A DNA stretch of 64,000 bases, taken from Thermoanaerobaculia bacterium (GTDB taxonomy: Bacteria; Acidobacteriota; Thermoanaerobaculia; Gp7-AA8). The notes beneath the pieces are model-generated. The model saw only the letters and a list, made by a program, of their open reading frames with translations. It did not search any database and was not told the origin of the DNA. This document shows, piece after piece, positions 59,105 to 62,100 of the stretch; position 1 is the stretch's first letter, and each line of letters begins with the position of its first letter. The stretch is taken from NCBI GenBank assembly GCA_036388835.1, contig DASVRB010000185.1:12021-76020 (forward strand). Reading direction: 5' to 3'. The translations under genes and the position numbers were made by a program.

Positions 59105-62100
59105 ATGAACGGAGCCATGCCCAAACAGGAGCCGGTCCGTCACGACTTCTCCAAGATCAGGTCGTACATGGCATTGCCAAACCTGATCGACGTCCAGAGA
59201 AAGTCGTACGAGCGTTTCCTGCAGATGAACCTCCTTCCGGAGGAGCGCGAGGACACCGGCCTGCAGTCGGTTTTCACCAGCGTTTTTCCCTTCAGCGACT
59301 TCCGTGAGACCTGTTCTCTCGACTTCGTCCGGTTCGCCATCGGCAACTGGGAGTGCAAGTGCGGCCAGCTCAAGGGCCTCGAGCACCTGCGCATGTCCTG
59401 CGCGAACTGCGGCGCCAAGATCATCACCGACCACCCGCACGAAGAGACCGTCAACTGCGGCCAGTGCGGCGTGATCAACAAGAACCGCGTCGAGGTCTGC
59501 GACATCTGCGGCAACCCTGTCGACCTGCAGATGAAGTACTCGGTCGAAGAGTGCCAGGAGCGCGGCATGACCTACAGCGTTCCGCTGAAAGTCACGTTCC
59601 GCCTCTTCGTCTACGACAAAGACCCCGACACCGGCGTCAAGCACATGCGCGACGCCAAGGAAGAGGAAGTATTTTTCGGCGACATCCCGCTGATGACGGA
59701 CAACGGTACGTTCATCATCAACGGAACCGAGCGCGTCATCGTCTCGCAGCTCCACCGTTCGCCCGGCGTCTTCTTCACGAAGGAAAGCGCCCACACCTTC
59801 CTCTCGAAAATCATCCCGTACCGCGGCTCCTGGGTGGAGTTCGAGTACGACCAGAAGAACATCCTCTACGTCCGCATCGACCGTAAGCGCAAGTTCCTCG
59901 GATCCGTCTTCCTCCGCGCGCTCGGCCTGACCACGGACGAAGAAATCCTTCGCCAGTTCTACACCCCGATCAAGGTCCGTCTCAAAGACAACGGCGCCGA
60001 GCTCACGTTCGACCGCCGCGTTCTCGATCAGGAAGAAGCGAAGGAGCGTCACTCGATCCGCGGCCGTCGCGCCGTGCGCACCGTCTTCGCCGGCATCAAG
60101 CTCGACCAGAAGATGGCCGATCAGTTGACGAAGAACAACGAGACGACCGTGAAGGTCGACTACGCGGCGCTCGACAAGGCCGTGTTCCTCGGCGACGTGG
60201 TCGACATCAACACCGGCGAAGTCCTCTTCGAGGCCAGCGAAAACGTTCCGGCCGACTGGGCCGCCGTCCTCGGCGACCGCGGCATCAACGAGATCGAAGT
60301 GATCTTCCCGGAGTGGGATCTCGTCTCCGACATCCTGCTCAACACCGTTCGCAAGGACACCTCGAAGTCGTTCGAGGCGGCCATCATCGAGATCTACCGC
60401 CGCATGCGCCCGGGCGATCCTCCGACCCTCGAGTCGGCCAAGGCCCTCTTCGAAGGCATGTTCTTCGACGCACGCAAGTACGACTTCTCGCGCGTCGGCC
60501 GCTTCAAGTTCAACATCAAGCTCGATCTCGATTCGCCGGTCACGCAGAAGACGATGACGCCGGAAGACTTCTACGTCGTCATCAACTACCTGCTCCGCCT
60601 CCGCAAGGACGTCGGCCGCGTCGACGACATCGACAACCTCGGCAACCGCCGTGTTCGCGCCGTCGGTGAACTGCTCGAGAACCAGTTCCGCATCGGCCTC
60701 GTGCGCATGGAGCGCGCGATCAAAGAGAAGATGTCGGTCCACCAGGACATCGACTCCGCGATGCCGCACGACCTCATCAACTCCAAGCCGGTCATCGCGG
60801 CCATCAAGGAGTTCTTCGGTTCGTCGCAGCTGTCGCAGTTCATGGATCAGACGAATCCGCTCTCCGAGGTCACCCACAAGCGCCGTCTGTCGGCCCTTGG
60901 ACCGGGTGGTCTGTCGCGTGAGCGCGCCGGCTTCGAAGTGCGCGACGTTCATCCGACCCACTACGGCCGCATCTGCCCGATCGAGACGCCTGAAGGTCCG
61001 AACATCGGCCTCATCTCCTCGCTCGCGTGCTATGCGCGCATCAACGAGTACGGCTTCATCGAGTCGCCGTACAAGAAGGTGCAGGACGGCCGCGTCCTCG
61101 ACCACTACCGCATCGTGAAGACCGGCGACGCCAACTTCACGCTCGGCCAGATCGTCGAGAAGCGCGACCTGCAGAAAGAAAACAACCGCATCGCGAAGGA
61201 CAACGCCGGAAACGCCGGCGCGAAGAAGAAGAACCTGCTGCAGGCTGCCGAAGCCGAGCCGTACGCGTTCTACCTCTCCGCGTGGGATGAAGAGCGTTAC
61301 ACCATCGCGCAGGCGAACGTTATGCTCGACGACGAGGGCAACCTCGTGCACGACCGCGTCATCGCGCGTCAGTCGGGCGACTTCGTCTCCATCGAGCGCG
61401 AGAAGGTCGACTTCATCGACGTCTCGCCGAAGCAGCTCGTCTCCGTCGCGGCCTCGCTCGTTCCGTTCCTCGAGAACGACGACGCGAACCGCGCACTGAT
61501 GGGCGCCAACATGCAGCGCCAGTCCGTTCCGCTGCTCCGCACCGAGTCGCCGTACGTCGGCACCGGCATGGAGAACGTGGTCGCGCGCGATTCCGGCGCG
61601 GTCATTCAGTGCAAGCGTGGGGGCGTGGTCGACCTCGTCGACTCGAACCGCATCATCGTTCGCGTCGAAGCGGAAGATCAGGAGACCGGCGAAACGAAGG
61701 AATTCGGCGCCGACATCTACCAGCTCATCAAGTTCAAGCGTTCCAACCAGAACACCTGCATCGCGCAGAAGCCGGTCGTTCGCGAAGGCCAGCGCGTCCG
61801 CAAGGGCCAGGTCCTCGCCGACGGTCCCTGCACCGATGCCGGTGAGCTCGCCCTCGGCCGCAACGTGCTCGTCGCGTTCATGCCGTGGCGCGGCAACAAC
61901 TTCGAGGACGCGATTCTCGTGTCCGAGAAGCTGGTCAAAGAGGATTACTACACCTCGATTCACATCGAAGAATTCGAGATCGAAGCCCGTGACACGAAGC
62001 TCGGTCCCGAGGAAATCACCCGCGACATTCCGAACGTCAGCGAGTCCGCGCTGCGCGATCTCGACGAGAGCGGCATCATCCGCATCGGCGCGACCGTGAA

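Follow-up and report, generated by a model that had tools for sequence, protein, structure and literature searches.

An eight-cysteine insertion in RpoB

The window (the whole 64,000-nucleotide stretch analyzed here, from contig DASVRB010000185.1 of a Thermoanaerobaculia bacterium) contains the gene order rplA-rplJ-rplL-rpoB-(small open reading frame)-rpoC. The start of rpoC was placed at a TTG codon at 63677, preceded by GGGAGG, and the gene runs beyond the window end. The N-terminal part of RpoB, the RNA polymerase (RNAP) beta subunit, carries an insertion with eight cysteines that is interpreted here as two putative zinc ribbons. The features concerned are as follows:

59105..63391, + strand: rpoB, RNA polymerase beta subunit, 1428 residues (open reading frame; Pfam RNA_pol_Rpb2_1/2/3/45/6/7, E down to 2e-140)
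59345..59533, + strand: insertion N81-M143, about 62 residues, in the beta1 lobe/protrusion (beta-uD1), seen as a gap in alignments with solved beta subunits
59348..59413, + strand: putative zinc ribbon 1, W82-G103, W-E-C84-K-C86-G-x11-C99-x2-C102-G, resembling the zinc-binding domain (ZBD) of beta'
59414..59455, + strand: variable linker A104-N117 between both putative ribbons, with the lowest conservation in the insertion
59456..59512, + strand: putative zinc ribbon 2, C118-x2-C121-G-x2-N125-x6-C132-x2-C135-G, a zinc_ribbon/DZR and RanBP2-like pattern
63884..63961, + strand: beta' ZBD of the same genome, in the 5' part of rpoC (translation), the comparison partner of ribbon 1

Translation of 59105-59704 places the insertion between ...DFVRFAIG80 and K144. 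Its cysteines are arranged in four pairs, C84/C86 (CKC), C99/C102 (CANC), C118/C121 (CGQC), and C132/C135 (CDIC), with the spacing C-x-C-x12-C-x2-C-x15-C-x2-C-x10-C-x2-C. Eight of the 17 RpoB cysteines are thereby packed in 52 residues, and the other nine are spread over ~1365 residues. The original prediction, made from the sequence, had described ~65 extra residues with four CxxC pairs at 59343-59545. That range encloses the insertion (59345-59533) and the translation contains all four pairs, but only three of them are CxxC, the first being CxC, and the net gain is ~61 residues relative to an E. coli beta sequence that we take to run G76...C85 at this point.

The same prediction held that the segment is extra relative to other bacterial beta subunits, and solved structures agree. 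Residues 1-260 of RpoB match 53 distinct bacterial beta subunits (phmmer, all PDB sequences). In all 53, the best-matching stretch begins at query residue 140 at least, and residues 81-142 are covered by none. The three alignments displayed are broken into two blocks, at about query residues 7-81 and 143-260. No beta chain in the PDB was matched by a profile of the insertion alone, and no acidobacterial RNAP structure turned up in the PDB search.

Occurrence in Acidobacteriota

The distribution searches show the best 80-150 matches each, and statements on class-wide presence and on absence from other phyla apply within these. The first 200 residues of RpoB matched 903 proteins, and the best 120 (63-96% identical) essentially all have the motif. 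A peptide pattern, IG[NDV]W[EQ]CKC, gave at least 600 matches among GTDB species representatives (one genome per species); of these 600, 598 were confirmed, so that at least 598 representatives carry the insertion. The best 80 pattern matches come from Thermoanaerobaculia, Holophagales, Terriglobia/Acidobacteriaceae, Bryobacteraceae, Solibacter, and similar groups, and a further search, started from the most divergent insertion versions, added Pyrinomonadaceae (Blastocatellia). RpoB of the window is 96% identical to that of two other loci (L001 and L002).

All credible names among the listed carriers are Acidobacteriota. Together with the solved beta subunits, which lack the segment, this matches its earlier description as lineage-specific: among the matches listed, it is in-frame extra sequence between universal blocks, present clade-wide and not elsewhere. 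The comparisons indicate a genuine insertion that is fixed across the phylum, apparently in all named members found. It is a clean molecular signature of Acidobacteriota, and the peptide pattern exposed mis-binned contigs.

Three carriers have discordant labels, namely L028 (Hyphomicrobiales), P0003 (Gemmatimonadaceae), and P0019 (Rubrobacter). These are contigs of 1-5 kb from metagenome-assembled genomes, with an acidobacterial-type rpoB and the insertion. Because RpoB of L028 is 70% identical to that of the window over 1150 residues, the level seen in other Acidobacteriota, its contig is judged to be mis-binned; all three are probably binning contaminants.

Conservation of the insertion

An alignment of 73 homologues shows no variation at the eight cysteines or at G80, W82, L92, R96, and G122, and K85, G87, L89, G91, L95, N125, G136, and V139 are nearly invariant in the insertion. 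The fully invariant residues are the same in five versions that are mutually 43-49% identical. Cysteine conservation in an alignment had been proposed as a check on the original prediction, and it holds in the 73 homologues and in these five highly divergent ones. The spacing 1-12-2-15-2-10-2 was found in 232 of 236 pattern-matching sequences, and the remaining four have one additional residue in the middle spacer. This spacer, of 15 or 16 residues, is the only part of the insertion outside the cysteine pairs (knuckles 1-4 in the following) that varies in length. Because the cysteines are invariant in homologues and the spacing is the same in 232 of 236, the cluster is, judged from these alignments, no chance pattern.

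Column identity was calculated from 70 sequences (69 species-level loci and the window), with tblastn identities to the window of 58-97% across 80 loci. The mean for the insertion is 0.75, or 0.72 with cysteines excluded, compared to 0.78 for residues 12-80, 0.86 for residues 144-260, and 0.62 for the lobe/beta-i4 region. Within the insertion, values are 0.80 for ribbon 1 without cysteines, 0.64 for the linker, and 0.66 for ribbon 2. We conclude from these values that the insertion is under strong purifying selection and is no tolerated loop.

Conservation also bears on whether the segment might be an artefact, in the form of a chance cysteine cluster, a misassembly, an intein, or a mobile-element remnant. 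It is in frame, and hundreds of independent genomes, along with thousands of proteins from metagenomes, show the same architecture. The invariant cysteines, the species distribution, and the fixed spacing refute such an origin, to which we assign practically no probability.

Single cysteine substitutions are confined to singleton read-level sequences. Apparent losses of the fourth knuckle were rejected as frameshifted gene calls (P0236 and P0260) or as truncated or chimeric sequences (P0022, P0032, P0143, P0150, and P0316). The only recurrent knuckle variation is C-R-N-P-[SA]-C-G (C-x4-C) at knuckle 2 in the Terriglobia-like sequences P0089, P0122, P0131, and P0137. On very long contigs (L087, P0016, P0118, P0260, and others), rpoB and rpoC are split into short gene calls or have out-of-frame stretches. 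Indel errors in long-read assemblies are the probable cause, and they account for the many RpoB "fragments" of 200-350 residues in protein databases.

Predicted fold and similarity to known zinc ribbons

In an AlphaFold2 model of the insertion in context, the predicted local distance difference test score (pLDDT) is 82-93 and each cysteine pair lies at a beta-hairpin turn (DSSP; strands/bridges 81-83/90, 96-98/105-107, 115-117/124-126, and 131/138-142). A model of the isolated insertion has the same secondary structure, and both models place CxxC-type knuckles at hairpin turns, as in Cys4 zinc ribbons. The model in context is thus a confident beta-hairpin/knuckle fold and not the disordered loop that had been named as the adverse outcome for the prediction.

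A profile of the insertion was searched against 1.84 billion representatives (HMMER), yielding 1310 matches of two kinds. In the first kind, RpoB N-termini, the match runs over the full length of the profile, at about residues 79-145. The second kind is matched by profile positions ~30-62 alone, with E to 2e-20, and consists of tandem zinc_ribbon/DZR proteins from bacteria and RanBP2-finger repeat proteins from eukaryotes. These positions correspond to ribbon 2, whose pattern is identical to the repeat unit C-x2-C-G-x2-N-x6-C-x2-C-G, and the zinc_ribbon/DZR (PF13240, PF13248, and PF12773) and RanBP2 (PF00641) modules are the sole non-RpoB matches among the 1.84 billion. PDB matches of the insertion profile include the double zinc ribbon of DZANK1 (E 1.8e-6) and fingers of RBM10 and ZNF265. 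Ribbon 2 agrees with the RanBP2 pattern W-x-C-x2-4-C-x3-N-x6-C-x2-C in spacing and in its Asn but lacks the Trp that precedes the first cysteine by two residues; ribbon 1 has this Trp. Ribbon 2 also differs from all of these modules in that it is embedded in an RNAP subunit and not in a repeat array.

Ribbon 1 resembles the beta' ZBD, whose cysteines are C70/C72/C85/C88 in E. coli. WECKCG-x11-CANCG of beta and DWECLCG-x11-CDKCG of beta' from the same genome form a gapless alignment of 26 residues, with W-E-C-x-C-G, a 12-residue spacer, one Lys, one His, and C-x2-C-G in common. Ribbon 1 shows the beta' ZBD arrangement C-x-C-x12-C-x2-C with an aromatic residue and Glu before the first cysteine and Gly after the second and fourth, and the two further share the position of the His in the spacer and have a strand following the second knuckle. 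A ribbon 1 profile searched against the PDB (177,635 distinct sequences) has beta' or cyanobacterial gamma ZBDs as 58 of its 60 best matches (E 0.0018-0.15). The profile scored 27.7 bits against the beta' ZBD of its own genome, a value reached by none of 2000 shuffles with fixed cysteines (mean 2.0 +/- 4.2 bits, maximum 26.7). In the reverse test, a small beta' ZBD profile scored up to 21 bits (median 10) against the insertion, and the best of 414 unrelated ribbon units scored 9.6. These scores make it likely, though unproven, that ribbon 1 and the beta' ZBD are related, and convergence on a short knuckle motif is possible.

Like the beta' ZBD, ribbon 1 is a short Cys4 insertion that is specific to bacteria and interrupts a universal domain of RNAP, but the two belong to different subunits and different pincers (the beta1 lobe versus the beta' clamp/RNA exit). 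Ribbon 1 occupies beta residues 82-103 and not the N-terminal clamp position of the beta' ZBD at the RNA exit and upstream DNA, and it is followed by a second ribbon. The basic cluster between the knuckles is mostly gone, as the Lys/Arg-rich stretch of the beta' ZBD (K-Y-K-R-x-K-H-R) is largely replaced by Leu/Gly in ribbon 1 (x-L-x-G-L-x-x-L-R). At most, ribbon 1 is a paralogue of the beta' ZBD and not a positional member. The beta' ZBD is also termed beta'-bD1 (PMC11515920).

An origin by duplication would be a more speculative reading, and we consider it improbable in its full form. In the ancestor of Acidobacteriota, a duplicate of the sequence encoding the beta' ZBD would have entered rpoB and been joined there to a zinc ribbon of a common type. 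RNAP would thereby have four structural metal sites instead of two, and the opposite pincer would bear a second ZBD, belonging to beta. This ZBD would contact upstream fork/spacer DNA or dock a phylum-specific factor and so alter promoter opening. If the relationship is real, a mini-domain would have been copied from one large subunit to the other, a rarity; if the duplication reading were true, promoter opening would have changed in a phylum that is among the most abundant in soil.

Wiring of the proposed metal sites

The most likely fold of the segment has two Cys4 sites in succession, joined by a variable linker of 14-15 residues, and the metal bound would probably be zinc. As the best explanation of the whole, this fold together with a partner-binding role (see below) is given a probability of roughly 0.6. 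Sequential wiring, with C84/86/99/102 and C118/121/132/135 as the two sites, appears the best supported arrangement because each half matches a self-contained Cys4 module and the middle spacer is the most variable in sequence and length. The four separate pairs of the original prediction would accordingly be read as two Cys4 modules, a refinement suggested by the half-wise profile matches.

Several results weigh against this reading. No Pfam zinc-ribbon family matched the insertion above its curated cut-off; the sub-threshold matches are DZR (E 4.5e-4, 20.8 bits versus a cut-off of 27.3), Zn_ribbon_3 (18.8 versus 27), the TFIIB Zn ribbon (17.2 versus 29), and Zn_ribbon_RanBP (E 0.013). The model of the isolated domain is moderate in confidence (pLDDT 68.6), and its top Foldseek matches, led by LysW, are all zinc ribbons or RanBP2 fingers with E of at least 0.3, none of them significant. 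The earlier label "zinc-ribbon-like" is supported by the profile searches, and the resemblance in the fold search is without statistical significance. The likeness of ribbon 1 to the beta' ZBD spans 26 residues with marginal E-values, and the reciprocal search is weak. In addition, some profile matches straddle the two proposed sites: eS27 was matched by positions 16-46 (E 7e-4), archaeal RNAP subunit P by positions 20-45 (E 0.009), and LysW, the first Foldseek match, with E 0.08.

These last matches fit a nested or cross-braced wiring, in which C99/C102 and C118/C121 would form a classical ribbon at the tip (like that of eS27, RpoP/Rpb12, or LysW) and C84/C86 and C132/C135 would clasp the base. 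Knuckles 1 and 4 adjoin the entry and exit strands in the AlphaFold2 model, two strands that are necessarily neighbors. However, knuckles 1-2 and knuckles 3-4 each match self-contained Cys4 modules of identical spacing, and it is the spacer between knuckles 2 and 3 that is most variable and changes in length, whereas the spacers within each half never vary. We regard nested wiring as possible, although the less likely of the two.

RpoP, Rpb12, A12.2, and eS27 are among the weak sequence or fold matches of the insertion. The zinc ribbons of archaeal and eukaryotic RNAPs (the C-terminal Zn site of Rpb2/RpoB, RpoP/Rpb12, and Rpb9/A12.2) and of eS27 are likewise small Cys4 ribbons, and the former also decorate a multisubunit RNAP, but their positions on the enzyme are unrelated to that of the insertion and the matches are marginal.

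Position on the enzyme and possible roles

In E. coli numbering, the insertion point is beta residue ~77, which belongs to beta-uD1 (beta1 lobe/protrusion), a domain that comprises E. coli residues 1-152 and later segments (PMC11515920). The beta1 lobe (Taq residues 18-138 and 333-392) binds the RNAP-interacting domains of CarD, which occurs in Acidobacteria, and of TRCF/Mfd, and the upstream part of the transcription bubble is close to it (PMC4593161). The CarD and Mfd/TRCF domains therefore act on the same lobe that carries the insertion, and CarD reaches the upstream fork from there (PMC4593161), but they belong to separate proteins, and their fold is Tudor-like and not that of a zinc ribbon. 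In the AlphaFold2 model, strand 179-195 comes next along the chain after strand 158-172, and we infer that the hairpin of these two strands shares a beta-sheet with the strand entering the insertion. The conserved IKE/AKE strand used by Mfd presumably lies in strand 179-195.

The net charge of the module is +2.0 +/- 1.9 (range -4 to +6) and about -2 in the window, as counted by hand. Ribbon 1 is mildly basic (mean +2.8) and ribbon 2 is neutral. In the proposed mechanism, a small and rigid module would be held by the metal sites on the solvent-facing side of the beta1 lobe, and this module would provide an additional binding surface, most likely for a protein partner; upstream fork or spacer DNA would be a less likely partner. 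A protein is favored because the net charge is merely mildly positive and varies between species. The roles would therefore rank as a surface for a protein partner, then contact with upstream DNA, then a purely structural function. The original prediction had suggested a possible docking site for a lineage-specific factor.

In the second of these roles, the module would be a nucleic acid-binding second ZBD on the beta1 lobe, contacting upstream fork/spacer DNA or RNA in the manner of the CarD C-terminal domain or of the beta' ZBD on the opposite pincer. The beta' ZBD contacts nucleic acids and ribbon 1 resembles it; ribbon 1 is also mildly basic, and RanBP2-type fingers among the matches (ZRANB2 and RBM10) bind single-stranded RNA. 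The beta1 lobe is, moreover, close to the upstream bubble edge (PMC4593161). Against this, the basic residues of the beta' ZBD are largely lost in ribbon 1 and the net charge of the module ranges down to -4, with -2 in the window. Overall, a nucleic acid-binding role seems unlikely.

Another reading is a purely structural or assembly role, in which a metal-stapled excrescence would stabilize the beta1 lobe or aid its folding with no partner involved. Many small zinc ribbons are structural, and the conserved non-cysteine residues are mainly Gly, Leu, Trp, and Val, typical of core and turn positions. However, the surface positions K85, R96, and N125 are nearly invariant too, conservation equals that of functional core regions and is phylum-wide, and the comparison with PDB sequences indicates that other bacteria manage without the module. 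We hold this role to be no more probable than nucleic acid binding.

A redox or metal sensor would make a different use of the eight thiolates, which would bind Zn, or Fe as in rubredoxin, and would lose it when oxidation or metal stress occurs, so modulating RNAP. CxxCG knuckles are common to rubredoxins and zinc-thiolate switches, but the insertion has nothing beyond ordinary structural zinc ribbons and no associated redox genes were seen in the rpoB operon. A sensor is held to be improbable.

A protein-partner surface on two Cys4 sites remains our preferred reading. It would amount to a phylum-wide, strongly constrained double Cys4 module beside the CarD/Mfd site and the upstream bubble edge. 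Such a module would adjoin both, and its place would thus point to an uncharacterized feature of transcription initiation or of repair coupling in Acidobacteriota, a phylum abundant in soil.

Comparison with catalogued beta insertions

Lineage-specific insertions of bacterial RNAP are known docking and regulatory surfaces, and those described in beta belong to the BBM2/BEAN class. We know of no bacterial beta subunit that binds zinc. Five beta insertion sites were named in a 2024 AlphaFold-based re-analysis, none of them in the N-terminal part of beta-uD1, and the words zinc, cysteine, and ribbon are not used there (PMC11515920). The catalogued insertions beta-i4 (SI1), beta-i9 (SI2), and beta-i11 are BBM2/BEAN or helical modules (PMC11515920, PMC2939025), BEAN being defined by two antiparallel bracket-like elements of about 80-100 residues (CATH 3.90.105.10; PMC11515920). 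Acidobacteria were included in the alignment of Lane and Darst and are listed with beta-i4, beta-i9, and beta-i11 (PMC2939025), which fits the length of RpoB in the window (1428 residues).

Like the catalogued beta insertions, the segment is clade-restricted, in frame, located between universally conserved blocks, and presumably surface-exposed. It differs in consisting of putative Cys4 ribbons instead of BBM2/BEAN and in its site in beta-uD1 around E. coli residue 77. No BBM2/BEAN match was found in the Pfam, PDB, or fold searches, and the segment has 62 residues, is rich in cysteine, and forms hairpin knuckles. The earlier statement that it is unlike the catalogued BBM2 insertions is supported both by its fold class and by a site outside the five that have been named (PMC11515920).

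We found no description of an acidobacterial RpoB zinc insertion in the searchable literature, whose coverage leaves out the catalogue of Lane and Darst 2010. Because their alignment includes Acidobacteria, the sequence of the insertion may well figure in that catalogue, perhaps under one of the names beta-i1 to beta-i3. Relative to the searchable literature on lineage-specific RNAP insertions, its fold class and site have not been described.

Gene neighborhood

A second cysteine-rich feature lies between rpoB and rpoC:

63395-63583, + strand: open reading frame of 62 residues, CxxCxGxG...CxxC (DnaJ_CXXCXGXG, E 9e-5, below cut-off)

It begins 4 nt past the rpoB stop codon and has a Shine-Dalgarno-like AAGGA 7 nt upstream. 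Seven contigs of close relatives encode an identical 62-residue protein in the rpoB-rpoC interval, with 5-6 nucleotide differences that are all in third codon positions; as the look-up was by exact protein, this comparison is biased. A more distantly related Thermoanaerobaculia locus, L087, lacks the open reading frame, and 39 nt separate rpoB and rpoC there. Being confined to close relatives and absent in L087, the small zinc-finger protein was rejected as a phylum-wide partner of the insertion.

Directly after this open reading frame, about 70 nt before the rpoC start, is a G+C-rich perfect hairpin, CCGGCGCG-CGTTC-CGCGCCGG (63584-63604, + strand). It has no T-run and is therefore no classical intrinsic terminator. 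A phage-integrase-family gene (PF00589) was found directly downstream of rpoC in close relatives (9917-10879 in L081/L082 and 8813-9775 in L083), a position that lies past the end of the window.

Upstream of the ribosomal-protein/rpoBC region, five tRNA genes are clustered at 54611-55517 (+ strand; Rfam, 64-70 bits), an ordinary neighborhood; tRNAs were the only Rfam matches in 54-64 kb. The 275-nt rplL-rpoB spacer contains a strong terminator-like hairpin at 58930-58957 (+ strand) with a 12-bp stem, nine G-C pairs, and the tail TTTGTCGTCT. More inverted repeats lie just upstream of it, at 58840-58920, and the hairpin is reminiscent of the partial terminator/attenuator at the same position in E. 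coli.

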